Shown here: piece after piece, positions 3,014 to 37,835 of the stretch
How the letters are laid out: every line of letters starts with the position of its first letter
Position numbering within the stretch: position 1 is the stretch's first letter
NCBI GenBank assembly: GCA_035695045.1
Contig: DASSEX010000081.1
Span: forward strand, 9,881-73,880
Reading direction: 5' to 3'
Origin: Mycobacteriales bacterium
GTDB taxonomy: Bacteria > Actinomycetota > Actinomycetes > JAFAQI01
DNA length: 64,000 nucleotides
The notes under the pieces: generated by a model
Seen by the model: only the letters and a program-made list of their open reading frames with translations
What the model was told of the DNA's origin: nothing
Database searches by the model: none
Position numbers and translations under genes: made by a program

Positions 3014-4045
3014 CTAGGTCCGCCGCTTCCTGACCCGGCGCACCCAACGCGACGCAGTCCGACGCACGCGCAGCGCGAGAGACGGGGTCGCAGCGGGGAG
3101 CGCCGCCTCAGGGGCTGCCTCGACCGACTCGCGGGCCTCCCGAGCGGCCGTCTTGATGGATGACTGGGCGAGCGCCTCCGCGTGACCGTAGGTTGCGACG
3201 TAGTGCTGCCGAAGGTCGTCGAGCGCGCTTCTCCGGTCAGCCGTGTCGCCGGCCTCCTGGGTCAGGCCCAGCAGCTCCTGCCAGGTGGCCTCGGCCAGGT
3301 CGCGCAACCACGCCGGCACGTCGACGGCGTCCCAGCCCGCGGGCGCCCGACGCAGCGAGGGGTCGACGAGGTCATCCACCTCGGCCTGCGCATCCGGGCC
3401 CGCCGCCGCCAGCAGGTCGACGTTCAGCGACTGCTCGGCCGTCTTGAGCGCACCGCGCCAGTCGCGCAGTACGTCGTCGTACAGGATGTAGGCGCGGCGG
3501 GCGCCGCGGGTCTGGTACTCGGCGTGCAACATCATGTTCAGCCACCAGCCGAGCCGGGTGGCATCGCTGTGCTTGTCGCGGTCAGTAGTGCGGACGCTCG
3601 ACATCACCTCCGTCGGATGACGAAGGGGCGTCACGAGCAACGGCTGCACACCCAGCTCGCCCATGCACGTCAGCCACATCGGAAGAAACCATGCCGTGCG
3701 CGGATCCTTGACGACGACACGGTCCGCCTCGTCGAACTGCCACCCTGTCCAGGTCCGGCAGTAGCCGAGCTCGACCGGCTCGTCGAGGACACGGGCCGCG
3801 GCCGACCAGGCGGCCGGTCGGGCATCCAACAGGTCAACGCCGTACCTGAGCATCAGCTTCGCGTGGAAGTTGACCACCCAGCGAGGCTCACCGAAGCCAC
3901 GCGGATTGGTCTTGTTCGCCTCGACCTCGGGCTGCGGGACGTAGAAGCCGAGCCGATTGAACACGCCGGCCGTCAGGCTGGTGCCGCTTCGTCCGGCTCC
4001 GATCACGAGCACGAGCTCGCGTGGATCCTCCTCCGCAGCCGTCAT
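3014..4045 (-). CDS. sulfotransferase family protein (PAPS-dependent, P-loop)
   Basis: 343 aa. N-terminal LVLVIGAGRSGTSL 5'-PSB loop, and a fold resembling the actinobacterial Stf-type sulfotransferases. Confidence 0.8.
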   Translation of the reverse strand: MTAAEEDPRELVLVIGAGRSGTSLTAGVFNRLGFYVPQPEVEANKTNPRGFGEPRWVVNFHAKLMLRYGVDLLDARPAAWSAAARVLDEPVELGYCRTWTGWQFDEADRVVVKDPRTAWFLPMWLTCMGELGVQPLLVTPLRHPTEVMSSVRTTDRDKHSDATRLGWWLNMMLHAEYQTRGARRAYILYDDVLRDWRGALKTAEQSLNVDLLAAAGPDAQAEVDDLVDPSLRRAPAGWDAVDVPAWLRDLAEATWQELLGLTQEAGDTADRRSALDDLRQHYVATYGHAEALAQSSIKTAAREARESVEAAPEAALPAATPSLALRVRRTASRWVRRVRKRRT

Positions 4046-4081
4046 CGCGCGGTGATCATAGTCGAGGCGGCGAGCGCCTCG

Positions 4082-5239
4082 TCAGCTGACCGGAAGGCCG
4101 AGCTGACGGGCGATCAGCAGCCGCTGCACCTCGCTCGTGCCTTCACCGATCTCCAGGATCTTCGCGTCGCGCCAGTGACGTGCGACGGGGAACTCGTCCA
4201 TGAAGCCGTAGCCGCCGAAGACCTGCGTGGCGTCGCGCGCGTTGTCGACGGCGATCGTCGAGGAGTAGAGCTTGGCGATGGCGGCTTCACGCTTGAACGG
4301 CTGACCGCCGGCCATGCGGGCCGCGGCGTCGTAGTAGGCGAGTCGAGCGACGTGAGTCCGCATGTCCATGTCGGCGATCCGGAACGCCACCGCCTGGTTC
4401 TGACCGATCGGCCGCCCGAAGGCCTCGCGCTCCTTGGCGTACTTCACCGACTCATCCACGCAGGCCTGGGCAAGACCGACGGCCAGTGCGCTGATGGCGA
4501 TGCGACCCTCGTCGAGGGTGGACAGGAACTGCGCGTAGCCGCGACCGCGCTCACCCAGGACGTGGTCCGCCGGAACCTGGCAGTCCTGGAAGGCGAGCTC
4601 ACGGGTGTCAGAGGCATGCCAACCGACCTTGCGGTAGCTCTTCGATGCCGAGAAGCCCTCGCGCGGCACCGGCACCATCACGCTTGTGAGCTCGGGGCGT
4701 CCGTCCGGCCGCTCGCCGGTGCGGCACAGCACCGTCACGAGACGAGTGATGTCCGTGCCCGAGTTGGTGATGAACGCCTTCGTGCCGTTGATGACCCAGC
4801 TGTCGTCGACCAGGACGGCGCGCGTCGTCGGGTTGCCGGCGTCAGACCCGCCTCCCGGCTCGGTCAGCCCGAAGGCGGCCAGCGCCTCTCCTCGGCAGAG
4901 CGCGGGGAGCCACTCCTTCTTCTGCTCCTCCGTCCCGAAGGTGTAGATGGGCATTGACCCGAGCCCGACCGCGGCTTCCAGGGTGATGGCCACGGACGAG
5001 TCGGCCCGGGCGAGCTCCTCGATGGCAAGACAGAGCGCGAAGAAGTCGCCGCCCATGCCGCCGTACTGCTCCGGGAACGGAAGGCCGAACAGGCCCATCT
5101 CGCCCATCTGACGGATGACGTCGTACGGAAACCGGTGCTCGCGGTCGGCTGACTCGGCTTGCGGAGCGACCACGTCGCGGGCGAACTTCCCGACTACGGA
5201 CCGCAGCGCTTCATGCTCGTCGTCGAGCCGAAAATCCAT
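4082..5239 (-). CDS. acyl-CoA dehydrogenase (short/branched-chain, isovaleryl-CoA DH-like)
   Basis: 386 aa from the internal ATG (MDFRLDDEHEAL...). The ACAD fold runs from the N-terminal helix domain to a C-terminal ...RQLGLPVS. The ORF-track N-terminal extension from 5371 is discounted. Confidence 0.85.
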   Translation of the reverse strand: MDFRLDDEHEALRSVVGKFARDVVAPQAESADREHRFPYDVIRQMGEMGLFGLPFPEQYGGMGGDFFALCLAIEELARADSSVAITLEAAVGLGSMPIYTFGTEEQKKEWLPALCRGEALAAFGLTEPGGGSDAGNPTTRAVLVDDSWVINGTKAFITNSGTDITRLVTVLCRTGERPDGRPELTSVMVPVPREGFSASKSYRKVGWHASDTRELAFQDCQVPADHVLGERGRGYAQFLSTLDEGRIAISALAVGLAQACVDESVKYAKEREAFGRPIGQNQAVAFRIADMDMRTHVARLAYYDAAARMAGGQPFKREAAIAKLYSSTIAVDNARDATQVFGGYGFMDEFPVARHWRDAKILEIGEGTSEVQRLLIARQLGLPVS

Positions 5240-5306
5240 GACGTGATCGTGCCACGTGCACGCGCAGGCGGGCTGAGCGACTGTCGCTCCGCGATAGCAT
5301 CGAGCG

Positions 5307-8132
5307 GTGCCGACGCCGAGCGAGAGTTCGACCGTCGGCGGGCTCAGACCGGACGTCAGCGTCGTCGTCATCGCCTACAACGACGCTGCACGACTGCCCG
5401 AAGCCGTGGCGTCCGTCCTCGACCAGACCTTGCGTGCGCTCGAGGTCATCGTGGTCGACGACGCGTCGACGGACGGCACCTGGGACGTCGCGCAAGCATT
5501 GGCCGAAGCGCATCCCGACCGCGTGCGCGCGATCAGGTTGCCGGAGAACTCCGGCGGCTGCTCCCGACCCCGCAACACGGGGATCGATGCCGCGCAAGGC
5601 GACTACGTCATGTTTCTCGACAGTGACGACAGTCTCGAGCGGCACGCCGCGAAGAACCTGCTGCTGACCGCGGAGCGGACGGGTGCAGACCTCGTCTCCG
5701 GCCTGTGCGTTCGGGTCAACGTGACGAACGAGAACAAGCGAACCAGGTGGTACGCGCGGCTGTATGCCGAGCACGCGACCTACGACAGCATCCGGGACGC
5801 GCCCGAGCTTCTGTTCGACACGCTGTCGACCAACAAGCTCTACCGACGCGAGTTCCTCGACCGCAACGGCATCCGGTTTCCGGACGGTCTCCATTACGAG
5901 GACCTGCTGTTCAGCACCGAGGCCTATTGCACGGCGCAGCCGATCGCCATCCTGCCCGTCGAGGTCTACCGGTGGCACGTCGTCGAGGACGCCGCGACCG
6001 CGTCGATCAGCAACCGGCGCAACAACATCGCCAACTTTCGTGACCGGCTGCAGATTCACCAGCGGATCGATGCCTACCTGGTCGCGCGCGGATTCGACGA
6101 CCTGCGACCGATCAAGGACCGGAAGTTCATCCTGCAGGACCTCAAGCTCTACCTGACCGACCTGGCACGGCGCGACGCGACGTACCAAGAAGCCTGGTTG
6201 AACATGGCCGCCGACTACCTCGAAACGGTCTCCGACGAAGCGGTCGTGAGCGCCGGCCCGCTGGCGGCGGCCACCGCGTACCTCGTCCGCCGGCGGGACC
6301 TCGACGAGACTCTGCACGCTGCCGAACTGTGGATCCACGGGCGCCTGTCCGGCGGCCTGTGCCTCGACAGCGGCCGCGCCTACCTCACCGGGCGCTACCT
6401 CGAGGACGACCTCGGCCGGGAGCTGTTGGACGTCACCGCTCTGCACCTGCACGATGCACCGTTCAGCCGTCGCAACATGCGCAACCGCCTGGTGTCGATC
6501 GCCGGTGACCGGACCGCCGAGCTGCGGGGCGAGATCAACGACCCCCTCCGTGCCATCGACGCAGACGACGAGCTGTCCGCGACGCTCGAGCTGCGGACGG
6601 CCGACGGCAGGCATCGGGTCGACATCGCCCGCCCGCAGGTCGAGCTGACGGCCCAAGGCACCCTGACCTGGCGGGCTTCACTCGCGGCACGCCGGCGACC
6701 GCCGCGGATGCCGCCGAACGTGAAGTCGTGGGGACTGTGGATGACCCTGCACCACGGCGACAGCGTCAACGTCTCCCAGGTCATCTCGACGACGGACGTG
6801 ACCGCCGGACGCAGACTCCCGTGGAAAAGGTCCCCGTGGACGGGCCAGAGCCTGCTCTGGGTCGAGCGAGGTCCTGGCGACGGAGTGTGGCTCCGGGTCG
6901 AACGTGCCTCGAAGGCCTGGCGCCTGGCTGACCGGGTGTGGTCTCGCGTGCGCCGCTCCGGTGTGTACGGCGACCTTCGACGGCTGTTCTTGTCGGCGCG
7001 CAGCCGTGGCCTCAAGTCGCTCGTCTATCGATCGGTACTCGTCCGGCTCCCTGTCCGTCGCGGAACTGCCGTGTTCGAGAGCCAGCTCGGTCGCGTGTAC
7101 GCCGACAACCCGAAGTACGTCTACCGGGCGTTGCGATCCGCCGGCGACAACCGCCGGGTCGTGTGGTCGTACACCGAGAGCACTTCTGGATGGCCGCAGG
7201 ACGCGGTGCTGGTGAAGCGAGCGAGCTGGCGGTACTTCTACGAGCTCGCCCGCGCAGAGCTGTGGGTCGACAACCAAGGGTTCCCGCCAGGAGCGCCGAA
7301 GCGGCGCGGCACCAAGTACCTCCAGACGTGGCACGGGTCGCCGTACAAGGCCATGGGCTTCGACCAGCCACAGCTGCAGTTCGGTCCGGCGGACAAGCGC
7401 GCGGAGTTCGCCGCCGGCGTCGGTCGATGGACGCACTTCTGCGTGCAGAGCCCGTTCGCGGACGACACGTTCCGTCGGGCGTTCCGGCACTCGGCCAAGT
7501 CCCTGCCCAGTGGGTACCCGCGCAACGACCCGCTGCTGCGGTACGACGCGGCGGCCGTCAAGGACCTTCGCGCCCAGCTGGAACTTCCGGACGACCGGCA
7601 GATCGTGCTCTACGCACCGACGTTCCGCGACTCCGATCGGGTCACACGCACGCGGTCGGGTCTGCGGTTGAACCTCGCACGGCTGAGCGAGCTGGTCGGG
7701 GACCGCTGCTACTTGCTCGTCCGCGCGCACTACCTCGACCGGGGCAGCGTCCCGACGCGCTACTCGAGCTTCGCGCGCGACGTCTCGGACTATCCGGACA
7801 CGACCGAGCTGTTGCTGCTGGCAGACGGCCTGATCACGGACTACTCGTCGGTGATGTTCGACTACGCCCTCCTGCGCCGGCCGATGCTCTTCTACGCCTA
7901 CGACCTAGAGCTCTACAACCAGACCCGTGGCTCCTATTTCGACCTCGAAACCGAGGCGCCGGGCCCCGTCGTCAAGACCGAGGACGGGGTCGCCGAATGG
8001 CTGAGCGACTTCCGTACGCCGCACCTCGCATACGCGGAACGCCTCGAGCGGTTCGTCGACAAGTTCTGCACCTACGAGACGGGCCACGCGTCGGAAGATG
8101 TCGTGCGCGAGTTCTTCGGCGTCGGCACATGA
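5307..8132 (+). CDS. bifunctional glycosyltransferase family 2 / CDP-glycerol:poly(glycerophosphate) glycerophosphotransferase (TagF/TagB-like) fusion
   Basis: 941 aa. N-terminal GT2 signatures VSVVVIAYND...[11 protein letters not shown]...FLDSDD (DXD). C-terminal Glyphos_transf motifs YLQTWHGSPYKAMGFD and ITDYSSVMFDY. Confidence 0.85.
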   Translation: MPTPSESSTVGGLRPDVSVVVIAYNDAARLPEAVASVLDQTLRALEVIVVDDASTDGTWDVAQALAEAHPDRVRAIRLPENSGGCSRPRNTGIDAAQGDYVMFLDSDDSLERHAAKNLLLTAERTGADLVSGLCVRVNVTNENKRTRWYARLYAEHATYDSIRDAPELLFDTLSTNKLYRREFLDRNGIRFPDGLHYEDLLFSTEAYCTAQPIAILPVEVYRWHVVEDAATASISNRRNNIANFRDRLQIHQRIDAYLVARGFDDLRPIKDRKFILQDLKLYLTDLARRDATYQEAWLNMAADYLETVSDEAVVSAGPLAAATAYLVRRRDLDETLHAAELWIHGRLSGGLCLDSGRAYLTGRYLEDDLGRELLDVTALHLHDAPFSRRNMRNRLVSIAGDRTAELRGEINDPLRAIDADDELSATLELRTADGRHRVDIARPQVELTAQGTLTWRASLAARRRPPRMPPNVKSWGLWMTLHHGDSVNVSQVISTTDVTAGRRLPWKRSPWTGQSLLWVERGPGDGVWLRVERASKAWRLADRVWSRVRRSGVYGDLRRLFLSARSRGLKSLVYRSVLVRLPVRRGTAVFESQLGRVYADNPKYVYRALRSAGDNRRVVWSYTESTSGWPQDAVLVKRASWRYFYELARAELWVDNQGFPPGAPKRRGTKYLQTWHGSPYKAMGFDQPQLQFGPADKRAEFAAGVGRWTHFCVQSPFADDTFRRAFRHSAKSLPSGYPRNDPLLRYDAAAVKDLRAQLELPDDRQIVLYAPTFRDSDRVTRTRSGLRLNLARLSELVGDRCYLLVRAHYLDRGSVPTRYSSFARDVSDYPDTTELLLLADGLITDYSSVMFDYALLRRPMLFYAYDLELYNQTRGSYFDLETEAPGPVVKTEDGVAEWLSDFRTPHLAYAERLERFVDKFCTYETGHASEDVVREFFGVGT

Positions 8133-9328
8133 CCGCAGCTGCCGAAGAACGGTCGGCGCCAGAGTCGCGTCACCGGCGCAACATCTTCATCGTCGCCAAC
8201 AACATCGAGGAAGTCGGCGGGCTGCAACGCGTCGTGCACACGCTCGCCGAAGGCTTTGCCGAACGAGGGCACGCCGTCGAGCTGATCGGCATCTCCCCCG
8301 GCCCGCCCGGAGCGCGCATCGAGCCCGGGCGCGGTTACCAGACCATGACGCTCGGGCCCGCGGAGCCCGCTGAGTGGGTGCCCCGCGGGATACGCGCAAA
8401 GCTCCGGCCGGTCAAACAGGCGAAGGAACGCTTCCGCCGACGCGTCCATGCGCGAAACGTCGGTCGGTTGCAGGCACGGTTCGACCGCGTCGAAGACGGA
8501 GTCGTCATCGTCGGTCAGATCTGGGCGATGCAGTGGGTCGCCGACGCAGACACCCGACACCTGCGCGTCATCGGGATGAGCCACGAGTCCTACGAGGCCT
8601 CCCGCGGGCTGCTGCCCACGGCCATCGGGTCGACGCGATATCGGCGGATCATGCAGCTCTACCCGCCGATCGACGCCGTCCTGCTGCTCACGGAAGTGGA
8701 TGCGCGCAAGTTCGAACAACGCGGGCTGTGCAACGTCCAGGTGATGCACAACCCCCTTCCTCAGTGGCCCGACCAGGTGTCACCTCTCACCGACAAGCGG
8801 GTGGTCGCCATCGGCCGGCTCGAGCCGGAGAAGCGATACGACCGTCTGCTGGACGCATGGAAGATTGTCGCCACACGCCACCCCGGCTGGCGACTGGACA
8901 TTTACGGCGCCGGTAGCCTCGCCATGTCACTGCATGACCAGATCGAAGAGGCCGGACTCGTGGACAGCGCAGTGTTGCAAGGACCCACCAAGGATCCGTT
9001 CAGCGTTCTTCAGCGCGCTTCGGTCCTCGCGTTGTCCTCGGAGCAGGAAGGACTGCCGCTCGTGCTGGCGGAAGCCATGGCAACCGGCGTTCCCTGCGTG
9101 GCATTCGACTGCGTGCCAGGGATCCGCGAAATCATCCGCGACGGCGAGGACGGCCTGGTCGTGCGCAACAGGGACGTCGACGCCCTCGCGGACGGGATCT
9201 GCCGACTTATCGAGGACGAGCAGCTGCGCCGGTCCTTCGGATCACGCGGGCGGCACAACATCGAGCGTTTCCGCCTGGACCGGATCCTCGACCGGTGGGA
9301 GCAGCTTTTCGAGCAGGTGGACCGATGA
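8129..9328 (+). CDS. glycosyltransferase family 4 (GT-B, retaining)
   Basis: 399 aa from the ATG overlapping the upstream stop (ATGA). Contains the GT4 EX7E region EQEGLPLVLAEAMATGVPCVAFD. The long upstream extension given in the ORF track (6938..) is shadow reading. Confidence 0.85.
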   Translation: MTAAAEERSAPESRHRRNIFIVANNIEEVGGLQRVVHTLAEGFAERGHAVELIGISPGPPGARIEPGRGYQTMTLGPAEPAEWVPRGIRAKLRPVKQAKERFRRRVHARNVGRLQARFDRVEDGVVIVGQIWAMQWVADADTRHLRVIGMSHESYEASRGLLPTAIGSTRYRRIMQLYPPIDAVLLLTEVDARKFEQRGLCNVQVMHNPLPQWPDQVSPLTDKRVVAIGRLEPEKRYDRLLDAWKIVATRHPGWRLDIYGAGSLAMSLHDQIEEAGLVDSAVLQGPTKDPFSVLQRASVLALSSEQEGLPLVLAEAMATGVPCVAFDCVPGIREIIRDGEDGLVVRNRDVDALADGICRLIEDEQLRRSFGSRGRHNIERFRLDRILDRWEQLFEQVDR

Positions 9329-9789
9329 ACCGCCTGCAGCAGATCTGGCACGAGATCGCCAAGTTCGGGCTCGTCGGTGCGGTCAACTACGTGCTCGACG
9401 TCTCCTTGTTCAACGCGCTGATCGTCGGCCCGCTGCACGACCGCCCGCTCACGTCCAAGGCGATCTCCACCGTGGTCGCGGCGACCTCGTCGTACTTCAT
9501 GAACCGCCACTGGACCTGGCGCAACAGGGCGAGGACCGGTCTTGGCCGGGAGTACGGCCTGTTCATCGTGCTCAGCGCCGTCGGGCTGGCCATCACCCTG
9601 GGATGTCTCGGGTTCGGCGAGTACGTGCTCAACCAACACTCGTGGCTCGCCCGCAACGTGTGGGGCAACGTCGTCGGCGTCGGCCTCGGCATGGTGTGGC
9701 GCTTCTGGTCGTTCAAGCGATGGGTGTTCCTGCCGGCCGGTCCGGCCGCCGACGCGGACGACGACGCGGCTCATGCGGCGCTCGTCTGA
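9325..9789 (+). CDS. GtrA family protein (polysaccharide-synthesis associated small membrane protein)
   Basis: 154 aa with 4 predicted TM helices. The N-terminal KFGLVGAVNYVLDVSLFNAL is GtrA-like. Its ATG overlaps the GT4 stop (ATGA). Confidence 0.8.
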   Translation: MNRLQQIWHEIAKFGLVGAVNYVLDVSLFNALIVGPLHDRPLTSKAISTVVAATSSYFMNRHWTWRNRARTGLGREYGLFIVLSAVGLAITLGCLGFGEYVLNQHSWLARNVWGNVVGVGLGMVWRFWSFKRWVFLPAGPAADADDDAAHAALV

Positions 9790-9799
9790 CGACGGAAGA

Positions 9800-11365
9800 T
9801 CACACGGGCGCGACCCCGTGGCGCCGGCGCGAGAATGCCCGGTCCTTGTTCCGGTACGCCGCCAGCCGGCGGATGAGCTCTGAGCGCAGCTCTTCGGGCT
9901 CGACGATCGCGTCGACGACGAGCTCACTCGCCAGCCGCACGATGTCGATGTCGGCGTTGTACTCGTCGCGCAGCTTCTGCACGTAGACCGCACGCTCGGT
10001 CTCATCCTCGATCGACTGAATGCGGTTGTAGTGGACGGCATTGACCGCCGCCTCCGCACCCATCACCGCGATCATCGCGGTGGGAAGCGCCAGCGTCGCG
10101 TCCGGCTCGAAGCCCGGCCCGGCCATCGCGTAGAGACCGGCGCCGTAGGCCTTGCGAACGATCACCGAGATCTTCGGCACGGTCGCCTCGGACACCGCGG
10201 TGATCATCTTCGCGCCGTGCCGGATGATGCCCTCCCGCTCGACGGCCGTGCCCACCATGAAGCCCGGAACGTCGGCGAGAAACACCAGGGGGACGTTGAA
10301 CGCGTCGCAGAGCTGGATGAAGCGTGCGGCCTTGTCCGCGGAGTCGACGAACAGGACGCCGCCTTTGAACATCGGGTTGTTGGCGACGATTCCGACAACC
10401 TCGCCGTCGAGACGCGCGAAGCCCACCAGCAGCTCTCGCGCCCACAGCGCATGGATCTCGAAGAACGAGTCTTCGTCGACCAGCGCCTTCACGTAGCGCC
10501 GCATGTCGAATGCCTGCCGCTCGCTGACGGGCACGAGGGAGCGCAGATCGCCGGTGCCGGCCGCCCTCGGCTCGGAGCGCGGGGGGAGCTGGGTCCAGTT
10601 CGAGGGCAGATAGGACAGATAGCACTGCACGATGTCGAGCGCGGTGGGCTCGTCCTTGGCGAGGAAGTGGCCGACGCCTGAGACGGTGCAGTGCATCTTG
10701 GCACCGCCCATCTCCTCCAGCGTCGTCTTCTCCCCGACGACCATCTCCACCATGCGAGCCGATCCGAGGTACATCGAGGCGTTGCCGTCCACCATGACGA
10801 CGACGTCACAGAACGCCGGGATGTAGGCGCCGCCCGCGGCGCTGGGACCGAACAAGGCACACACCTGAGGAATCGAGCCACTGGCCCGAACCTGGGTGTG
10901 GAAGATCTTCCCCGCTCCCCGCCGACCGGGGAACATCTCGACCTGGTCGGTGATGCGCGCGCCTGCGGAGTCGACCAACCACACCATTGGCACACCGGTG
11001 CGGTAAGCCTGCTCGATGATGCGCACGATCTTCTCGACCGTCCGGGCACCCCACGATCCGGCCTTCACCGTCGAGTCGTTGGCCATCAGACACACCGGCC
11101 GACCGTCGACGGTGGCGGTCCCGGTCACGACGCCGTCTGCCGGCAGATCGGCCGCGCCGGCGTTCGCGTAGAGCCCGTCCTCGACGAACGAGCCCGCGTC
11201 GACGAGCAGACGGATCCGCTCTCGCGCGAACAGCTTGCCCTTCTCGGCGTTCGCACTGTGGTACTTCTCGGCGCCGCCCGCGAGGATCCGCTCCCGGAGC
11301 TGGGCGAGATGGGGGTGACCTGGATCGTCGTGCTCGGCCCTGACAGCCTCGGAGTCGGCGCTCAT
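9800..11365 (-). CDS. acyl-CoA carboxylase carboxyltransferase beta subunit (AccD1/MCCase-beta-like)
   Basis: 521 aa from the internal ATG (MSADSEAVRAEH...). Carboxyltransferase N- and C-subdomains are present ([23 protein letters not shown] ... VANNPMFKGGVLFVDSADKAARF). Confidence 0.85.
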   Translation of the reverse strand: MSADSEAVRAEHDDPGHPHLAQLRERILAGGAEKYHSANAEKGKLFARERIRLLVDAGSFVEDGLYANAGAADLPADGVVTGTATVDGRPVCLMANDSTVKAGSWGARTVEKIVRIIEQAYRTGVPMVWLVDSAGARITDQVEMFPGRRGAGKIFHTQVRASGSIPQVCALFGPSAAGGAYIPAFCDVVVMVDGNASMYLGSARMVEMVVGEKTTLEEMGGAKMHCTVSGVGHFLAKDEPTALDIVQCYLSYLPSNWTQLPPRSEPRAAGTGDLRSLVPVSERQAFDMRRYVKALVDEDSFFEIHALWARELLVGFARLDGEVVGIVANNPMFKGGVLFVDSADKAARFIQLCDAFNVPLVFLADVPGFMVGTAVEREGIIRHGAKMITAVSEATVPKISVIVRKAYGAGLYAMAGPGFEPDATLALPTAMIAVMGAEAAVNAVHYNRIQSIEDETERAVYVQKLRDEYNADIDIVRLASELVVDAIVEPEELRSELIRRLAAYRNKDRAFSRRRHGVAPV

Positions 11366-11432
11366 CAAGCGGAAGCGTAGCGGCCCAGGCGTGCCCGACC
11401 GTGCACACCGCTGCGCTAGGGTCGCAGGCCCT

Positions 11433-12608
11433 ATGTCGCAACCAGATCGGCCCATCTTCATCGTCGGCTGCCCGCGATCGGGTACGACGTTGTTCCGGAC
11501 GATGCTGCATGCGCATCCACGCATCGCCGTGCCGCCGGAGACCCGGTTCGTCATGCCGGCGTATCGCCGCCGCTACGCGTTCGGTGACCTCCAGCTGACC
11601 GCGAACCGACAGCGACTCGCCAGGTGGATCGTGGATCGGGCAGAGACCCGGTTCAGCGTTCTCGAGGTCGATGCGGAGAAGGTTCGACAGGCCATCATCG
11701 ACGGGCCGCCGACCTTGGGATCAGCGTTCGGCGCCGTCTTCCGCGAGTACTCCGACAGCCATGGCAAGGCGCGCTGGGGCGACAAGCGCCCGGCCTACTA
11801 CTCGTTCATCGAGGAGCTCGACGCCCTCTTCCCGGACGCGCAGTTCATCCACGTCGTCCGGGACGGGCGGGCATGCGTGGCGTCGCTGAAACGGACACCC
11901 TGGCTCGACCACGAGCCGATTCCGTGCATGGCGACCTGGATGATGGCGATCGACTGCAGCCGCGAGTCCGGCGCGAAGCTCGGCCGGAACCGCTTCTGCG
12001 AGGTCCGTTACGAGGACCTCGTCACAGACCCGGAGAAAGAGATGCGACGGGTCTGCGAGTTCCTCGGCGAAGCCTTCGTCCCCGAGATGTGTCATCCCGA
12101 GAAGATCGCCGAGCAGGTAAACCCTGCGCATTACCAGCAACGCCGTCAGATCAGCGAGGGCATCTACACCAAGTCGATGGAGGCCTGGCGCGACGAGCTG
12201 ACACCGTGGGAGATCGCAACTTTCGAGAAGGCGGCGGGTTCGCGGCTGGCGCTCTACGGCTATGCCCCGTCCGGCATCGACCAGGAACCCCCCAAGGACA
12301 AGGTCCACGAGCTGCTCTCCGAGCACCGCCGCCTCCGCCAGAGCCTGCAGTCCCGGCGTCGTTCGGATCGGCGCAAACGCGTCGATGCCGACCGCCCCGT
12401 TGCCGCCGTACTGACCGAAGGGCAGCGCAAGGCCGCCGCCGAACCGATGAGGCGTCCGTTGGCAAGCAAGCTGCGGCGGTCCGCCCGGCCGGTCGTCCGC
12501 CGAACCCGACGGTTGTGGCGCACAATGGTCCGTCTCGAACGGCCTCCTCGCGCGGCAGCAGCGGCCCCCTCCGCCCAGCAGGCAGTCGACAACATCGAAG
12601 AGACCTGA
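11433..12608 (+). CDS. sulfotransferase family protein (second copy) with basic C-terminal tail
   Basis: About 391 aa from MSQPDRP. Contains the IFIVGCPRSGTTLF 5'-PSB P-loop and a mid-protein VVRDGRA (3'-PB-like) motif. The C-terminus is Arg/Lys-rich. Confidence 0.75.
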   Translation: MSQPDRPIFIVGCPRSGTTLFRTMLHAHPRIAVPPETRFVMPAYRRRYAFGDLQLTANRQRLARWIVDRAETRFSVLEVDAEKVRQAIIDGPPTLGSAFGAVFREYSDSHGKARWGDKRPAYYSFIEELDALFPDAQFIHVVRDGRACVASLKRTPWLDHEPIPCMATWMMAIDCSRESGAKLGRNRFCEVRYEDLVTDPEKEMRRVCEFLGEAFVPEMCHPEKIAEQVNPAHYQQRRQISEGIYTKSMEAWRDELTPWEIATFEKAAGSRLALYGYAPSGIDQEPPKDKVHELLSEHRRLRQSLQSRRRSDRRKRVDADRPVAAVLTEGQRKAAAEPMRRPLASKLRRSARPVVRRTRRLWRTMVRLERPPRAAAAAPSAQQAVDNIEET

Positions 12609-12674: not shown

Positions 12675-13310
12675 ATGGGTATCTCGCTGTTCAACTTCGT
12701 CCTGTTCCTGCACATCTCGCTGGTGGTCGTCGCCTTCGCGATGGCAGGCATCGTGCATGCCGGCATGCCGGCGATGGCGCGGGCGCGCGACGTCTCGCAG
12801 ATGCGCCCGTGGGCCGAGCTGCTGCACCGCCTCGACCCGCTGTTCCCCGTGGTTGCACTCTTCCTGCTCGGGCTCGGCTCCTGGCTCGTGCATCTCGGCG
12901 CGCACACCGGCGACGGGTTCTCGTTCAAGGACGGCTGGGTGATCACCTCCATCGTCACGCTGGTCGTGATCGAGGGGATCGCGGGCGCACTGCTCGCGCC
13001 GACCGCCAAGCGGCTCGTCGCCTCGATCCACGAGGCGGCGGACGGCCCGCCGAGCGCCGAGCTCCGCGTCGCCGCCCGCGATCCGAAGATCTGGTACCCC
13101 GGGCACATCGCGACGTTCGGCTTCCTCGGCATCGTATTCGTCATGGCCACCAAGCCCGCGGGTGAGTGGGCATGGCTGTTCCCGGCGGCCGGCGCTGCGA
13201 TCGGCGTCGCGCTGGCGCGGCTTCAGCTCGTGCGTCTCACCTCGACGAGCGACGGGTCGGTGCCGGCGCAGCGCGCTGCCGCAACGGAGACGGCCGTCCA
13301 GCAGGCCTGA
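12675..13310 (+). CDS. hypothetical integral membrane protein (4 TM)
   Basis: 211 aa with hydrophobic helices. Preceded by a GAAGAGGGGG RBS. No recognisable catalytic motif. Confidence 0.5.
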   Translation: MGISLFNFVLFLHISLVVVAFAMAGIVHAGMPAMARARDVSQMRPWAELLHRLDPLFPVVALFLLGLGSWLVHLGAHTGDGFSFKDGWVITSIVTLVVIEGIAGALLAPTAKRLVASIHEAADGPPSAELRVAARDPKIWYPGHIATFGFLGIVFVMATKPAGEWAWLFPAAGAAIGVALARLQLVRLTSTSDGSVPAQRAAATETAVQQA

Positions 13311-13323: not shown

Positions 13324-14241
13324 TCAGCCGACCGGAACGGTCCGGGTCCGGGGACCCGCGCGCAGCACCTGTGACGGCAGCGTGCGACCGACGATGCGCT
13401 CGGCCGTCGCCGCGACGTCGATCATCGCGTCGAGGTCGACGCCGGTCGCGACGCCCATGTCCTCGACCATGTGCACGAGCTCCTCGGTCGCGACGTTGCC
13501 GGTGGCCCCCGGCGCGTAGGGACAGCCGCCGAGCCCGCCGACACTCGCGTCGAAGTCCGAGACACCGAGCTCGAGCGCGGCGAGGACGTTGGCGAGACCC
13601 GTGCCCCGCGTGTTGTGGAAGTGCAGGTTCAGCGGCGCGTCCGGATGCGCCGAGCGGAGCTCACCGACCAGCCGGGTGACCCGGGTGGGCGTCGCCATGC
13701 CGGTGGTGTCCCCGAACGAGATGCCGTCGGCACCGTCCCGCACGGCACGGGAGGCGACCGCGACGACCCGCTCGACCGGCACGTCTCCCTCGTAGGGGCA
13801 GCCCCAGGCGGTCGACACGATGACCTGCAAGGTCGCGCCGCGACCGTGCACCAGGTCGATGACCTCGGCGATCTCGTCGAGCGACTCGTCGGTCGAGCGG
13901 TTGATGTTCTTGCGGTTGTGCGTGTCGCTCGCACTCACCACGATCTCGAGCTCACGGAACCCCGCGTCGAGTGCGCGCTGCGCCCCTTTGAGGTTGGGCA
14001 CCAGCGCGGAGTAACGCACGTCGTCGTTGCGGGTCACGTGCTGCCACACCTCGGCGGCGTCGGCCATCTGCGGGATCGCCTTGGGGTGCACGAAGCTGAC
14101 CGCTTCGATCCGCCCGACGCCCGTCTTGGACAGCGCGTCGATCAGCTCGACCTTGGCCTCGGTCGGGACCGGCGCTTCGTTCTGTAGTCCGTCGCGCGGG
14201 CCGACCTCGCGCAGGCTGATCCGCTCCGGGAGGTCGCTCAC
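13324..14241 (-). CDS. hydroxymethylglutaryl-CoA lyase
   Basis: 305 aa. Has a TIM-barrel DRE_TIM signature (EVGPRDGLQNE ... HFHNTRGTGLAN ... GGLGGCPYAPGATGN). Confidence 0.9.
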   Translation of the reverse strand: MSDLPERISLREVGPRDGLQNEAPVPTEAKVELIDALSKTGVGRIEAVSFVHPKAIPQMADAAEVWQHVTRNDDVRYSALVPNLKGAQRALDAGFRELEIVVSASDTHNRKNINRSTDESLDEIAEVIDLVHGRGATLQVIVSTAWGCPYEGDVPVERVVAVASRAVRDGADGISFGDTTGMATPTRVTRLVGELRSAHPDAPLNLHFHNTRGTGLANVLAALELGVSDFDASVGGLGGCPYAPGATGNVATEELVHMVEDMGVATGVDLDAMIDVAATAERIVGRTLPSQVLRAGPRTRTVPVG

Positions 14242-16582: not shown

Positions 16583-18223
16583 CTAAGGCCGATGCAGGCG
16601 AGCTGCCGTCTGTTGCGCGGCATAGCGCGCCCACGAGCCGGCCGCGATGGCACGGTCGGTGATCTGTGGCAGAGCGGTCAGCTGGAGGACGAGGCGGCCG
16701 TTGACCTCCGCGATGCGCACGCGATCGCCGACGAGGCGCCGCCACGGCGTCGGAAGCGGGTGGTCGCCCGGCGGCAGGTCCGCGTCGCGCCCCGTCAGTG
16801 GCCGGACCACGCGCTCGCCGTCACGCTGCAGCTCGACGAGCAGCCGCAGCTCGTGACCCACCGTCGGGCGGCCGAGCGCCTTGCCCAGAGCAACGAGATC
16901 GAGGCGTCCGCTGAACCGGACGTCGGCCCCCGCGTCGGTCAGCAGGAGCGGGCCGGACCACAGCACACCGCCGAGCCGCCCGCGCACGAGGATCCGGCCG
17001 GCCAGGGACTGAGCCGGCCCGAGCCGGCCGAGGACGTCGTACACGCGTCCGTCGCAGAACAGGCTGTCGCCCTCCCAGCGAGCGTGGTCGACCGTGGCGA
17101 GGAACGGTGTCGCCGCGAAGGCGGCGGAGAGCACGCCCGTCGCGGTCACGTCGAGAGCGTCGCCCGCGTCGGGATGAGCAGACGTCCAACGCAGCCGGTC
17201 GCCGCCTTCGACGGTCAGGTCGGACGCCAGGCCTCCGGTCACCGCGAAGTCGGCCGCCGCCAGCACGCCGGGCAGGTCTCCGCGGGCCGCGAGGACTGCC
17301 GCGACCCTGGGGCCGACCGGCTCGACCGGCCAGCTCCGCTCGTCGATGCCGGTCAGGTACTTCTGCGCCAGGTCCAGCAGTGCCTGCCGGTCATCGGTAC
17401 GACGACCACGGAGGTCACGCAGGAACACGGTGAAGTCCGCCGACAAGAACTTCACCTGCTTGGCGCGAACGACCGCGGCCGGCACATCGACGCGAGCGAG
17501 ATGCGCGTCGATGCGGCGATGCACCTCGAACCGGTCCTGCCAGTTGCGGAGCTCCGTGCGGTTGGTGATGGAGGGGATGTCCGCGTCACGCCGGACGTTC
17601 CAGACGTAGACCAGGTCGGGCACGACGGCGATGCGCCGGGCGCTCACGTAAGCCGCGGTCGTGAAGAGCAGATCCTCGTAGAGGAGCCCCTCCGGGAACG
17701 ACAGGTCGTTGTCCGTGAGGAAGCGGCGCCGGTAGAGCTTCGCGGGGGCAGGCGTGTCGAACAGCTGCTCCGGACGCTCGGCGATGCCGTCGACGACCGC
17801 CGCGCGGGCATAGAGCCGGCGGTGCGCCTCGATGTAGCGCGTCGGCCGGTGGTGGCGCCGCACCCACCGGCCGCACACGATGTCGGCGTCGGTGCGCCGC
17901 GCCGCGCGCAGCAGCCGGCTGCACGCCGGCCGGGGCAGCGCGTCGTCGCTGTCGAGAAACGTGACGTAGTCGCCCGTCACGAGTGACATGCCGACGTTTC
18001 GTGGGCGGCTGCAGCCCCCGCTGTTGGTCTCCAGCCGGTGGTAACGGACGCGTTCATCCGCGGCCGCGAGGGCCGCCGCGACCGTCGGCGTCTCGTCGTC
18101 CGATCCGTCGTCGACGATGACGACCTCGAGGTCGCGAAGGGTCTGCGTCGTCGCCGACCGGACAGCTGTGCCCAGGTGCTGCGCGTCGTTGAAGCAGATC
18201 ACGACGACCGACACCGCGGGCAT
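16583..18223 (-). CDS. glycosyltransferase family 2 with C-terminal non-TagF extension
   Basis: 546 aa. The N-terminal GT2 domain is paralogous to the two fusion proteins ([10 protein letters not shown]...[12 protein letters not shown]...FLDSDD). The C-terminal half has no Glyphos_transf motifs. Confidence 0.8.
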
Positions 18224-20102: not shown

Positions 20103-21305
20103 ATGCGTCGCTTCCCAGCCGGTCTCGCCGTTGCCGCCCTGATCCTCACGGCCTGCAGTGCGACGAGCGGACAGGCCGAGCGGGTGACGACCGGGGCCTC
20201 CCCGTCCGCCTCGGCAACGGCGACCTCCTCACCGAGCCTCACGCCGCGTCCGACCCGCGCCGCCGCGTCGCTGCGCGGTCTGCTGCCGGGCATGCCGGCG
20301 CCGTTGTCGCCGACGGACATCTATGCCGCGGACCGACCTGGCCGCCTCTCCGCCGTCGTCCGGCACGACCCCGCGCTCGTCTACGTGCCCAACAGCGAGT
20401 CCGGGACGCTCGACGTCATCAGCCAGAAGACGTTCCAGATCGTGGGGCACTACCAGGTCGGCCGGCTGCCGCAGCACGTCACGCCGTCGTACGACATGCG
20501 CCGGCTCTACGTGCTGAACGACCAGGGCAACAGCGTCACGGTCATCGACCCGCGCACCGGCAAGCCGGGCCGGACGATCCCGGTCACCGACCCCTACAAC
20601 ATGTACTTCACCCCCGACGGCAAGTACGCCATCGTCGTCGCGGAGGCGTTGCAGCGTCTCGACTTCCTCAACGCCCGCACGATGCAGCTGGTGCACAGCC
20701 TTCCTGTCGACTGCTTGGGCATCGACCACGCGGACTTCACCGCGGACGGTCGATACGCCGTCTTCTCGTGCGAGTTCTCCGGCAAGCTGCTGAAGCTCGA
20801 CGTCGCGAAGCAGAAGGTCGTCGGCATGATTCACGTCAAGGAAGGCGGCTCGCCGCAGGACGTGAAGACCTCGCCGGACGGCAAGGTGATGTACGTCGCC
20901 GACCAGTACGCCAACGGCGTGCAGATCATCGATCCGAAGCGCTTCAAGGAGATCGGCTTCCTGCACACGGGCGTCGGGGCGCACGGCCTCTACGTCAACC
21001 GCTCGTCGACGTGGCTCTTCGTCACCAACCGGCGCGAGGGCAGCGTGAGCGTGATCGACCTGCGCACGCGCAAGGTGATCCACACGTGGCACATCCCCGG
21101 CGGCGGCAGCCCGGACATGGGCGGTCTGTCGGCCGACGGCAAGGTGCTGTGGTTGTCCGGCCGCTACAACAGCGTCGTCTACGCCCTCGACGCGCGGACA
21201 GGGCGCCTGCTGGCGAAGATTCCCGTCGGGTCCAGCCCGCACGGCCTCTGCGTGTACCCGCAGCCGGGGCGTTACTCGCTCGGGCACACCGGCGTCTTCA
21301 GATAA
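20103..21305 (+). CDS. lipoprotein, YVTN-family beta-propeller repeat protein
   Basis: 400 aa. A signal peptide carries the lipobox ILTAC. A Ser/Thr/Ala/Pro-rich linker is followed by repeated beta-propeller blades. Confidence 0.75.
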   Translation: MRRFPAGLAVAALILTACSATSGQAERVTTGASPSASATATSSPSLTPRPTRAAASLRGLLPGMPAPLSPTDIYAADRPGRLSAVVRHDPALVYVPNSESGTLDVISQKTFQIVGHYQVGRLPQHVTPSYDMRRLYVLNDQGNSVTVIDPRTGKPGRTIPVTDPYNMYFTPDGKYAIVVAEALQRLDFLNARTMQLVHSLPVDCLGIDHADFTADGRYAVFSCEFSGKLLKLDVAKQKVVGMIHVKEGGSPQDVKTSPDGKVMYVADQYANGVQIIDPKRFKEIGFLHTGVGAHGLYVNRSSTWLFVTNRREGSVSVIDLRTRKVIHTWHIPGGGSPDMGGLSADGKVLWLSGRYNSVVYALDARTGRLLAKIPVGSSPHGLCVYPQPGRYSLGHTGVFR

Positions 21306-22158
21306 CAGGAGGCCGGCCGGCTCGGGTCATCCGCCAGGCCGCTCTCCAGCCGATCGGACGGCGTTCGCCGCAGGGCTGACGGAGGCCGTCCCGCCACCCG
21401 CGCAGCGCCTCCCGGCGCGCGGCGCCCTGCGGCACGCGGGCGAGCGTCAGCACGAACCAGACCGCGAGGTAGACGGCGGCGACCGGCGCGGGCAGGTTGC
21501 GGCGGGCGAGCCACACCCGGTTGCGCCCCTGCATCCGGAAGTACGCCGGGTCACGCCCCGGCTGCTTCGCATCGTGCCAGCACACCAGCGCACCGGCGTA
21601 ACGCACCCGATGCCCTCCGTCGATGACGCGCCACGCGAGCTCGACGCCTTCGTGCTGGTAGAAGTACACCTCCGGCCAGCCACCGGCCGCCGCGAGCACG
21701 TCGCGCCGCGCGACGACCGCTCCCTCCCACAGCGCCGCGAGGTCACTGTCCCGGCCCGCGTCGCCGACGCGCAGCCGCGGTACGAAGGAGCGCGGCGTCT
21801 CCCCCGTCACCGGGTCGACCGGACGCAGCTGCACCACTCCGATGTCCGGGTTCGCGTCCAAGAGCTCCGCGGCCCTCGCGAGCACGTCGTCGTCGGCCAG
21901 GGCAGCGTCGTCATCGAGGAAGAACAACAGCTCGCCACTGACATGTGGCACACCCGCGTTGCGGCCGGCCGGGATGCCGACGTTCTGGGGAAGCCCGACA
22001 CCGCGCACGTCCGGAGGCAGGCCACTGGGCTGCCAACCGTTGCCGACGACGACGACGTCGAGAGAGACGCCACGTTGGGACAGGATCGAGCGCAGCGCCC
22101 GCTCCAACAGCTCCGGTCGGTTGCCCATGGTGAGGACGACGCAACCGATGCCGGTCAT
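21298..22158 (-). CDS. glycosyltransferase family 2 (short, GT-A)
   Basis: 287 aa from the internal ATG (MTGIGCVVLTMGNRPELL...), with an FLDDDA DXD motif. Its 3' end overlaps the convergent lipoprotein gene by 8 nt. The ORF-track extension to 22704 is discounted. Confidence 0.75.
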   Translation of the reverse strand: MTGIGCVVLTMGNRPELLERALRSILSQRGVSLDVVVVGNGWQPSGLPPDVRGVGLPQNVGIPAGRNAGVPHVSGELLFFLDDDAALADDDVLARAAELLDANPDIGVVQLRPVDPVTGETPRSFVPRLRVGDAGRDSDLAALWEGAVVARRDVLAAAGGWPEVYFYQHEGVELAWRVIDGGHRVRYAGALVCWHDAKQPGRDPAYFRMQGRNRVWLARRNLPAPVAAVYLAVWFVLTLARVPQGAARREALRGWRDGLRQPCGERRPIGWRAAWRMTRAGRPPVI

Positions 22159-22946
22159 CGCAGTCGCGCTGACGTCAGGATCGTCAGCAGATGCAGCAGG
22201 CAGACGAGGACGCCGACGACGGCGAGGACGACGGCAAGCACCTGATGACCGACGGTCGAACCCGCGACCAGGTCGACGACGGCGACCGCCACGAGGACCA
22301 CCGACAGGTCCCAGGCGAGCAAGAGACGGTTGATCGGGACGGCGTACGCGAGACGGCGTAGCCGGCGGATCCCGGAGACCTGCGGCGCGACAGCCGTCGG
22401 CTCGAAACGAGGCAGCCCGACATAGGCACGCGCCACGTGCACGAGGTCGGTCTCCGCCCTGCTGACCAGGACGAGCACGGCGCCGAGCAGCCCGAGTGTC
22501 GTCCAGCCGCCGATCGACCCGAGGCCACCGTCGGCATGCACCCCGACCGCGCACACGACGGCTGCGTCGGTCGTGTAGTGGCCGAAGCGGTCGAGGTAGA
22601 TCCCGCGCGGACTGCTCCACTGACGCCAGCGCGCGAGTTCTCCGTCCGAACAGTCGCAGAGCAGCTGCAGCTGGATGAGTGCGACCGCGACGAAGTCGGA
22701 CCACGCCGACGGCACGGTGAGCACCAGCGCCGCGGCCAGCCCGCTGACCACCATCAGCCAGGTGAGGCCGTCCGGCGTTGCCCTGGTGGGGATCAGCGCC
22801 CGGGTGAAGTGCAGCGACACCCGGCGCATGTAGAGCCGGCCCATCCAGTGCTCGCGACTCACGTCCTCGACGAGCGCCGGCGGATGAACGATCGCGCGCA
22901 GCTCCTCGAGCGAGGGCCGCGTGCGCTCAGCCGAAGGCGGCGACAT
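22155..22946 (-). CDS. CDP-alcohol phosphatidyltransferase family protein
   Basis: 263 aa polytopic membrane protein carrying the CDP-OH_P_transf motif DCSDGELARWRQWSSPRGIYLDRFGHYTTDA (D-x2-DG-x2-AR...G-x3-D-x3-D). Confidence 0.8.
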   Translation of the reverse strand: MSPPSAERTRPSLEELRAIVHPPALVEDVSREHWMGRLYMRRVSLHFTRALIPTRATPDGLTWLMVVSGLAAALVLTVPSAWSDFVAVALIQLQLLCDCSDGELARWRQWSSPRGIYLDRFGHYTTDAAVVCAVGVHADGGLGSIGGWTTLGLLGAVLVLVSRAETDLVHVARAYVGLPRFEPTAVAPQVSGIRRLRRLAYAVPINRLLLAWDLSVVLVAVAVVDLVAGSTVGHQVLAVVLAVVGVLVCLLHLLTILTSARLR

Positions 22947-34292: not shown

Positions 34293-34375
34293 CGGCGGAG
34301 CATCGCATGTCCCCGGGGGCCGCCGCCGCGTACGCAGCGCGTCGGCGCCATCGGCCGCCCCCGTAGAGTGCTCGC

Positions 34376-36333: not shown

Positions 36334-36540
36334 ATGGCTCAGCAGAAGGCCGCCAGTGAGCCCCTGCTCACCCCCGCGGAAGTCGCAGGACTCTTCGGCG
36401 TCGACAGCGCAACCGTCACCCGGTGGGCACGAGCCGGCCGGCTGACCGCCGTACGCACGCTCGGCGGCCATCGGCGCTTCCTCGAACGCGAGGTGCGCGC
36501 ACGCCTTTCCGCGTCGACGGGCCCTTTCCGTTCGATGTGA
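36334..36540 (+). CDS. bldC: BldC-like small MerR-type HTH DNA-binding protein
   Basis: 68 aa. The sequence EPLLTPAEVAGLFGVDSATVTRWARAGRLTAVRTLGGHRRF resembles Streptomyces BldC. A strong RBS GGGAGGAGG lies 7 nt upstream, after a 212-nt leader. Confidence 0.8.
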   Translation: MAQQKAASEPLLTPAEVAGLFGVDSATVTRWARAGRLTAVRTLGGHRRFLEREVRARLSASTGPFRSM

Positions 36541-36574
36541 CCCAACCCCTGACAGCTTTCTCGGAGGACACGGC

Positions 36575-37753: not shown

Positions 37754-37778
37754 CCCGGCTGTCCACGCCACGCGCGTT

Positions 37779-37835
37779 GAGTGCGACGTTCGACCCCCTA
37801 TCAGCGCATGAGATAGGGGGTCTTTCGTCGCACTC
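37779..37835. terminator. compound hairpin between convergent genes (bidirectional terminator candidate)
   Basis: The outer stem is gagtgcgacg paired with cgtcgcactc. The inner stem is gaccccctatc, a 9-nt loop, then gatagggggtc, followed by TTT. Confidence 0.5.

Follow-up and report, generated by a model that had tools for sequence, protein, structure and literature searches.

Two predicted sulfotransferases among teichoic-acid-type glycopolymer genes in a Mycobacteriales genome

The stretch of DNA analysed here, hereafter the window, comprises 64,000 nucleotides (approximately 70% G+C) of a metagenome-assembled genome (MAG) of a Mycobacteriales bacterium (assembly GCA_035695045.1, contig DASSEX010000081.1, positions 9,881 to 73,880), and carries two genes, named StfA and StfB, whose products are predicted to transfer sulfate from 3'-phosphoadenosine 5'-phosphosulfate (PAPS). 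Genes were assigned using third-position GC first, followed by Pfam and NCBIfam, and the open reading frames (ORFs) of both StfA and StfB are coding frames at the coordinates listed in Table 1 (third-position GC of 0.86 and 0.82, respectively). NCBI lists the exact sequence of StfA as a hypothetical protein, assigned to a Mycobacteriales MAG; the start methionine of StfB is common to its close homologues, which are likewise 391 aa long. The P-loop-like motifs recognised in an earlier note on this DNA, GAGRSGTS in StfA and GCPRSGTT in StfB, are not chance matches, and are found within VLVIGAGRSGTSL (StfA residues 12-24, close to the N-terminus) and IFIVGCPRSGTTL (StfB residues 8-20). The same note described the two genes as flanking the first block of glycosyltransferase (GT) genes. 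They do bracket the GT2-TagF fusion, GT4 and GtrA genes, but not contiguously, as an acyl-CoA dehydrogenase gene separates StfA from this block and a carboxyltransferase gene separates the block from StfB. StfA lies within a same-strand run in which the acyl-CoA dehydrogenase gene is followed after 36 bp by StfA, after a further 22 bp by purK, and then by purE, while StfB is divergent from the carboxyltransferase gene. Promoter and terminator scans around StfA and StfB revealed nothing informative.

On the basis of its sequence, StfB can be identified unambiguously as a sulfotransferase. It scores 155.6 bits against Sulfotransfer_3 (PF13469; cutoff of 27, E = 2.9e-45), making it a member by Pfam's own criterion, and has a C-terminal match to Sulfotransfer_1 (9e-13). 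Its closest solved relatives are the tyrosylprotein sulfotransferases TPST1 and TPST2 (approximately 1e-17) and the sulfotransferase domains of CurM and of an olefin synthase (OLS). The alignment of the StfB family preserves the P-loop (G12CPRSGTT19 in StfB), PPE36TRF, RWGDKRP, VR143DGRxxVxS151 and YEDL. Two of these motifs can be placed directly onto TPST2: R143DGRACVAS151 aligns with VRDGRASVHS, and PPE36TRF aligns with GEETRI, the glutamate of which we take to be the catalytic residue.

The divergent StfA escapes most of these models. No Pfam match is found at E <= 0.01, the alignment with Sulfotransfer_3 being full-length but sub-threshold (13.2 bits, E = 0.11, against the Pfam cutoff of 27); there is no NCBIfam match, that database having no model for StfA; and single-sequence and profile searches of PDB sequences return nothing meaningful. 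Hence the search with the Sulfotransfer_1 and Sulfotransfer_3 models, proposed in the earlier note as a check, gives a clear Sulfotransfer_3 assignment for StfB but leaves StfA below the threshold. Nevertheless, StfA is predicted to be a sulfotransferase on the combined strength of its homologues, its family alignment, a profile-profile alignment and its modelled fold. More than 1,100 homologues were found, most of them carrying a precomputed PF13469 domain. Among the invariant positions in an alignment of 32 family members are G16xGRSG-S23, P39E40, T46NPRGFxEP54, K113DPR116 and R142HPxE146...S150, and all 53 family-invariant residues are kept in StfA itself. Its P-loop (G16AGRSGTS23), like that of StfB, is invariant or nearly so within its family. 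The invariant PQPE40V contains a glutamate at the same spacing from R19 as Glu36 has from the P-loop Arg of StfB, and the two are placed in register by hhalign, which aligns the StfA and StfB families over 191 columns with a probability of 94.1% (E = 1.3e-7). Also in register are the P-loop, a Lys/Arg motif, the R...S 3'-phosphate motif and YDD/YED. The 3'-phosphate motif of StfA, R142HPTEVMSS150 (R-x7-S), is invariant in the family. As both proteins have the 3'-phosphate-binding region (V-R143-DGRACVA-S151 in StfB and L-R142-HPTEVMS-S150 in StfA, which align with one another and with the TPST motif), the objection that it might be absent, raised in the earlier note, fails. The AlphaFold (AF2) model of StfA has a pLDDT of 90.2 and a pTM of 0.83, and the best PDB matches to it found by Foldseek are essentially all sulfotransferases, with probabilities of approximately 1.0 and modest TM-scores of 0.40-0.48; they comprise tick and human TPST, OLS-ST, CurM-ST, cytosolic SULTs and StaL.

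Both proteins therefore appear to be TPST/CurM-like Sulfotransfer_3 enzymes, belonging to different subfamilies. With the TPST and CurM-OLS enzymes (PF13469) they share the GxxRSGTT/S loop, a glutamate approximately 21 residues downstream, the R-x7-S motif, the YED/YDD motif and the fold. The acceptors of the known enzymes are protein tyrosines or the beta-hydroxyl of a polyketide, and StfA differs from them in having its own invariant TNPRGFGEP loop, a basic amphipathic tail, glycopolymer enzymes as partners and a sub-threshold Pfam score. The 'Stf-family' label given to the pair in the earlier note cannot be retained: neither protein matches PF09037 (Stf0), StfA matches no solved Stf protein as a sequence or a profile, and for StfB the similarity to Stf9 (2z6v, 1.9e-7) and Stf1 (2zq5, 2.3e-3) is no more than distant, as it is to NoeE (3e-21, far below the cutoff). 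Membership of the mycobacterial Stf family is hence rejected. Stf0 (sulfolipid-1), Stf3 (sulfomenaquinone), Stf1, Stf9 and the rhizobial NoeE and NodH resemble the present pair in being bacterial, PAPS-dependent and directed at envelope glycolipids or glycans, but their acceptors are trehalose, menaquinone and Nod factors rather than polymers.

The basic C-terminal tail attributed to StfB is borne out, with 27 lysine and arginine residues among the last 100 in a long, Arg-rich extension. StfA is likewise basic at this end, a feature previously overlooked, with ten lysine or arginine and no aspartate or glutamate residues among its last 25. In each protein the highest hydrophobic moment coincides with an Arg-rich amphipathic C-terminal helix (residues 323-340 of StfA and 346-363 of StfB), and the basic tail is conserved across both families. 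No transmembrane segment is predicted in either protein.

The strongest association between these enzymes and glycopolymer synthesis emerges from the distribution of StfA across other genomes. With each GTDB species represented by a single genome, a pattern scan identified relatives in 136 genomes, from which 80 loci were kept, and their neighbours were counted using tblastn with a panel of window proteins. The loci originate from the Thermoleophilia (Solirubrobacteraceae, Thermoleophilaceae and Gaiellaceae), from Mycobacteriales-affiliated MAGs, Frankiaceae and Sporichthyaceae, and from cultured Nocardioides. A TagF-like gene, as called by homology with Pfam confirmation in samples, lies within 10 kb of StfA at 57 of the 80 loci, and a GT2 gene at approximately 66. 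The match to the TagF-like gene ends less than 500 bp from StfA in 53 loci, with a median gap between alignments of 57 bp. At 52 loci it is directly upstream on the same strand, and in all but one of these cases (51/52) the two genes overlap, by exactly 4 nt in 42 instances, which is on its face the classical arrangement for translational coupling. In 40 loci, the 400 bp downstream of StfA include the start of a GT2(-TagF) gene. The recurrent order on one strand is (GT2-)TagF, StfA and GT2-TagF, often accompanied by a divergent arm of GT4 - Sulfotransfer_3 - GT4 and by a pair of nucleotidyltransferase and CDP-alcohol-transferase genes. This linkage spans both the Thermoleophilia and the Actinomycetes, and is mostly found outside the birA-purK context. 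Inertia of synteny within the birA-purK interval was rejected as an explanation for StfA, because a birA, purK or pccB context is found at only about nine of the 80 loci, compared with 57 having TagF-like neighbours.

Other data on the family agree with this pattern. When all 1.84 billion representatives of 50%-identity clusters were searched with a profile, 1,898 StfA-family proteins were retrieved at E <= 1e-30, largely annotated as 'hypothetical protein'. Ten of the top 150 matches are abnormally long, of which eight are predicted to be fusions of the StfA domain, to GT4 (four), to a Stealth hexose-1-phosphate transferase (two), to GT2 (one) and to an FkbM methyltransferase (one); these are P0270, P0271, P0275, P0279, P0281, P0289, P0298 and P0304. 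Long extra regions lacking a Pfam match are seen in P0261 (688 aa) and P0358 (541 aa). Among 99 smaller neighbouring genes sampled from 14 diverse loci, the most frequent Pfam assignments were Sulfotransfer_3 (eleven), GT4 (five), and Glyphos_transf and Sulfotransfer_1 (four each), and TarS-linker GT2 genes are also found in StfA clusters. No homologue could be tied to small-molecule sulfation, and the second objection raised in the earlier note therefore fails as well; relatives of StfA are instead operonic with TagF-like genes in most genomes, and occur fused to GT4, GT2 and Stealth domains. A small-molecule or antibiotic gene cluster was likewise rejected, as there are no polyketide synthase, non-ribosomal peptide synthetase or other secondary-metabolite genes near StfA or StfB in the window and sampled loci. 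One carrier of the cluster is in culture: Nocardioides tweenelious CN2-186 (L072) has a TarS-like GT2, one or more StfA homologues, a further Sulfotransfer_3/_1 gene, two TagF-like polymerases and a TarIJ-like IspD-SDR fusion, all at approximately 1.19-1.21 Mb of NZ_JBDZDU010000001.1.

Comparison with its nearest relatives indicates that the window contains a rearranged and dispersed version of this conserved module. Locus L001, at which the protein is 70% identical to StfA, has the same gene order as the window, with intact genes. Four loci (L014, L031, L034 and L040) retain the order acyl-CoA dehydrogenase, (GT2)TagF, StfA, GT2-TagF and purK, and the birA-purK interval of L002 combines TagF, GT4 and GtrA genes with three genes of the Sulfotransfer_3 type and one of the Sulfotransfer_2 type, the product of the last being 633 aa long. 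The same part of L002 (10001-18537; MAG GCA_035690365.1, contig DASSKP010000028.1) also encodes a DUF6077 protein and a TarS-linker GT2, forming a sulfation cluster much denser than that of the window. More generally, a comparison of related genomes (L001, L002, L031 and L070) suggests that polymer and sulfotransferase genes are gained, lost and rearranged particularly often in the birA-purK interval. Loci L004 and L005 are the same locus in two assemblies of related samples; the carboxyltransferase, acyl-CoA dehydrogenase and birA region is fragmented in the former, on a contig of 3.5 Mb, and intact in the latter, such that the splits in L004 look like frameshift errors of a long-read assembly, not real pseudogenes.

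The context of StfB is more varied. At 29 of the 80 loci, the StfA cluster includes another, distinct Sulfotransfer_3 gene. At four of these (L025, L035, L059 and L073) it is a true orthologue of StfB (42-46% identity) positioned directly upstream of TagF-StfA, while the others are paralogues of approximately 30% identity flanked by GT4 genes. A metagenome scan anchored on StfB found its closest relatives (L089-L091, 54-55% identity) to be flanked by ABC-2, GT4 and GT2-TagF genes. On a Thermobispora bispora-type contig, the StfB orthologue follows GT2, GT2, GT2-TagF, PMT_2, Stealth and CDP-OH_P_transf genes; the only such neighbours of the Thermomonospora orthologue are a CDP-OH_P_transf/nucleotidyltransferase pair. 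In the window, StfB is followed after 66 bp by a gene for a DUF2269 integral-membrane protein, with which it is possibly co-transcribed; a 213-aa gene resembling it occupies the equivalent place in L002, which has no StfB.

Table 1. Positions of the two sulfotransferase genes, the polymer-related genes and other features of the window
Feature	Position	Strand	Size, assignment and remarks
StfA	3014-4045	minus	343 aa; divergent TPST/Sulfotransfer_3-like, predicted PAPS sulfotransferase
Acyl-CoA dehydrogenase	4082-5371	minus	Leucine-catabolism-like
GT2 + TagF-like (Glyphos_transf) fusion	5307-8132	plus	941 aa; Glyphos_transf E = 3.9e-102; TarF 1.6e-73, below cutoff; putative poly(glycosyl)polyol-phosphate polymerase
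GT4 glycosyltransferase	8132-9328 (start approximate)	plus	Pfam/NCBIfam
GtrA-family small membrane protein	9295-9789	plus	Pfam; lipid-linked sugar flippase type
Carboxyltransferase	9800-11554		Leucine-catabolism-like
StfB	11433-12608	plus	391 aa from ATG; Sulfotransfer_3 sulfotransferase
DUF2269 integral-membrane protein	12675-13310	plus	
HMG-CoA-lyase-like	13324-14241		Leucine-catabolism-like
Lone GT2 glycosyltransferase	16583-18223	minus	546 aa; between birA and pccB
GT2 glycosyltransferase	21298-22150 (start approximate)	minus	Pfam
CDP-alcohol phosphatidyltransferase-family membrane enzyme	22155-22946	minus	Pfam/NCBIfam
Fe-ADH_2	22927-23900 (start approximate)	minus	Pfam; glycerol-1-phosphate-dehydrogenase-like
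NTP_transferase nucleotidyltransferase	23970-24701	minus	Pfam/NCBIfam; likely polyol-phosphate or sugar-phosphate activation
Second GT2 + TagF-like fusion	24698-27682	minus	~994 aa; Glyphos_transf (PF04464) E = 7.2e-43
GH26-like (mannanase-family) ORF	27547-28578	plus	Between second GT2-TagF and UPF0182
ABC transporter ATPase	31412-32150 (start approximate)	minus	ABC_tran; TagH-like position
ABC-2 permease, TagG-like	32176-33048	minus	ABC2_membrane; adjoins ABC_tran, same strand
Biotin carboxylase	34367-36121		Leucine-catabolism-like

The remaining polymer genes of the window (Table 1) appear to constitute a teichoic-acid-type set, with TagF-type polymerases (PF04464) and an ABC-2 exporter, although the NCBIfam TarF/TarL matches of the GT2-TagF fusions fall below the equivalog cutoffs. 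The set is dispersed in small blocks among housekeeping genes: a first block at 5.3-9.8 kb, the lone GT2 gene, and a second block at 21.3-33 kb that also holds the GH26-like protein and UPF0182. Within the second block, four genes (GT2-TagF, NTP_transferase, Fe-ADH_2 and CDP-alcohol phosphatidyltransferase) form a run on the minus strand that has only polymer genes downstream of it. The NTP_transferase, which adjoins the Fe-ADH_2 and CDP-OH_P_transf genes, is not a TagD or TarI equivalog, and the two transferases of the run have weak NCBIfam matches to inositol-1-phosphate cytidylyltransferase/DIPP synthase and archaetidylinositol-phosphate synthase. The activated polyol may thus be an unusual one, such as sn-glycerol-1-phosphate or an inositol phosphate, instead of being supplied by the classical TagD/TarIJ route. 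The CDP-OH/NTP-transferase pair recurs next to StfA clusters in approximately eleven loci.

The interpretation preferred here, which is considered rather probable, is that StfA and StfB are cytoplasmic, membrane-peripheral, PAPS-dependent O-sulfotransferases that tailor a teichoic-acid-type glycopolymer. On the cytoplasmic side of the membrane, the GT2-TagF fusions would assemble a carrier-lipid-bound chain of the poly(polyol-phosphate) or poly(glycosyl-polyol-phosphate) type, and StfA and StfB may dock there through their Arg-rich amphipathic C-terminal helices. Using cytoplasmic PAPS as the donor, both would place sulfate esters on backbone or sugar hydroxyls of the lipid-linked chain before its export; the finished chain would then be carried outward by the TagGH-like ABC exporter and presumably attached to the wall. 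The existence of two subfamilies may suggest two acceptor positions. The acceptor of StfA might be backbone-proximal, given its coupling to TagF, and that of the second sulfotransferase might be on the sugar side, given that its gene is nested between GT4 genes, but this division is only a guess, because StfA-GT4 fusions also exist. As far as sequence analysis goes, this interpretation is strongly supported for StfA and moderately for StfB, the window copy of which is assigned to the polymer by its position and its nearest orthologues.

Several observations weigh against this interpretation. Neither StfA nor StfB is operonic with a GT or TagF gene in the window, and this decoupled arrangement in the genome's own locus is a main uncertainty. 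The TagF-like calls in the survey of StfA loci are, as stated, homology calls with Pfam confirmation in samples only. APS kinase, ATP sulfurylase and other PAPS-synthesis genes are absent from the window, and such genes do not recur near StfA clusters in the census of common neighbours. As TagO, TagA and LCP are not among the Pfam-annotated genes of the window, attachment to the wall is only putative. Wall linkage as opposed to a capsule and the supply of PAPS are further main uncertainties of a reading drawn from genomics. In the literature that could be searched, from which many subscription papers on the wall chemistry of actinomycetes are missing, there is no report of a sulfated teichoic acid and nothing that ties a sulfotransferase to TagF-type or wall-teichoic-acid synthesis. 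The claim is thus novel, but has no chemical precedent. Furthermore, the survey anchored on StfB is not uniform: of the 37 StfB-family loci that extend over 7 kb or more, only six have a TagF-like neighbour, and the StfB assignment is therefore rated below that of StfA. The Streptomyces orthologue stands alone, adjoining the suf operon, and family members of 45-50% identity are found in unrelated gene sets, alongside the flagellar export genes FlhB/FlhA and CheR (L128, 4904-13587), tandem squalene/phytoene synthases and a SpoIIE phosphatase (L146, 6650-13268), and RecQ and MMPL (L125, 7554-13288).

That last point bears on whether StfB acts on the polymer at all. The mixed gene contexts argue that the broad StfB family is functionally diverse and hint at other acceptors for some of its members, its wider representatives (42-50% identity) lying mostly outside glycopolymer clusters. 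StfB alone might then have another acceptor, such as a lipid or the tyrosine of a peptide or protein, with only synteny keeping it near polymer genes, as its best solved relatives are tyrosylprotein sulfotransferases and the window copy is situated between a divergent carboxyltransferase gene and the DUF2269 gene. This is judged improbable, since the closest orthologues have polymer genes as flanks, those of 42-46% identity directly precede TagF-StfA in four loci, and the Thermobispora orthologue directly adjoins a TagF/Stealth cluster; nor was a gene for any candidate substrate peptide noticed, although such peptides were not searched for systematically. Even less credible is the idea that the sulfotransferases of this lineage are decoupled remnants with a housekeeping or unknown role, in which case StfA would share a transcript with the genes for leucine catabolism and purine synthesis and the polymer would not be sulfated. 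The same-strand position of StfA close between the acyl-CoA dehydrogenase and purK genes, the loss of the TagF genes that flank it in L014 and the three loci like it, and the adjacency of acyl-CoA dehydrogenase and StfA genes without TagF in L039, L044, L070, L079 and L084 could all be read in this way, but it is hard to reconcile with the retention of every family-invariant residue, the conservation of the arrangement with intact genes in L001, and the two GT2-TagF genes and exporter still nearby.

A different question is where the polymer ends up. The same enzymology could produce a secreted capsule or exopolysaccharide-type phosphoglycan instead of a wall teichoic acid anchored to peptidoglycan. 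TagF-like and Stealth enzymes also make capsules, Stealth domains are fused to StfA and encoded beside the Thermobispora StfB orthologue, and the window has no LCP, TagO or TagA gene; moreover, the sole chemical precedent found for sulfate and glycerol phosphate in one polymer is a capsule, that of Cobetia marina. Such a product is nonetheless considered unlikely, as the exporter in the window is of the TagGH-like ABC-2 type, the LCP genes may lie elsewhere in the genome, and TagF-type polymers of monoderm actinobacteria are typically linked to the wall.

The preferred reading, a sulfated wall-type polymer, has partial parallels among known systems. TarM, TarS and TagE are soluble or peripheral enzymes found beside TagF/TarL-type polymerases, which glycosylate the lipid-linked chain before TagGH export. 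By analogy, StfA and StfB would decorate the chain at the same stage, except that they would move sulfate from PAPS where the former move sugars from UDP-sugars. The capsule of Cobetia marina KMM 1449 contains rhamnose-2-sulfate and mannose-6-phosphoglycerol, thereby combining sulfate esters with glycerol phosphate, and its gene cluster includes sulfotransferase, GT and ABC-transporter genes (PMC11766843). However, this species is Gram-negative, its capsule is of group III, with kps genes, and the glycerol phosphate is a side group; its cluster also includes PAPS-synthesis genes (cysNC, cysD and cysQ; PMC11766843), whereas none recur near StfA clusters. The cyanobacterial synechan cluster xss and wps-1 of Actinoplanes missouriensis also have two sulfotransferases of different families in a polysaccharide cluster (PMC13390465). 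These systems are Wzx/Wzy-dependent, with enzymes of the Sulfotransfer_1/2 type, rather than having the TagF-type phosphodiester polymerases and ABC-2 exporter of the window. The product of wps-1 is likewise only inferred: a 2026 study of A. missouriensis deduced a sulfated Wzx/Wzy exopolysaccharide from its two sulfotransferase genes, and states that sulfated polysaccharides in actinomycetes still await verification (PMC13390465).

The sulfotransferase superfamily and the polymer machinery are both of known types. What is new is their conserved coupling, a defined module in which a TagF-like gene is translationally coupled to an StfA-type sulfotransferase, often with a second sulfotransferase; from it, a teichoic-acid-type polymer bearing sulfate can be predicted. 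Teichoic acids determine the charge and ion binding of the Gram-positive wall, the control of autolysins, and interactions with phage and antibiotics; their known tailoring consists of D-alanylation and glycosylation. Sulfated bacterial glycans are, to our knowledge, considered rare. If the prediction is correct, sulfation would be a third kind of backbone tailoring, giving walls charged by both phosphodiesters and sulfate, and each ester would add a permanent, pH-independent negative charge without requiring extra phosphorus, which would matter for soil actinobacteria that are abundant yet poorly represented in culture, the Thermoleophilia among them. A broader proposal is more tentative, and put at slightly short of an even chance: that unrecognised sulfated teichoic-acid-type polymers are widespread in soil Actinomycetota, with StfA-type sulfation an integral, co-translated step of TagF-dependent assembly in Solirubrobacteraceae, Thermoleophilaceae, Gaiellaceae, Nocardioides, Frankiaceae, Sporichthyaceae and Mycobacteriales-affiliated lineages. 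As a cultured carrier of the module, N. tweenelious CN2-186 opens this prediction to direct chemical testing.

Some minor features of the window were also recorded. The birA, pccB and purKE genes, and those resembling genes of leucine catabolism, are interleaved with the glycopolymer genes. At 36446-37797 (approximately 1.3 kb), long ORFs without a Pfam match overlap on both strands, with a high second-position GC of 0.68-0.69. The GH26-like ORF has an unusually low first-position GC (0.56), and a GH26 gene is also present in wps-1, the putative sulfated-exopolysaccharide cluster of Actinoplanes missouriensis (PMC13390465).

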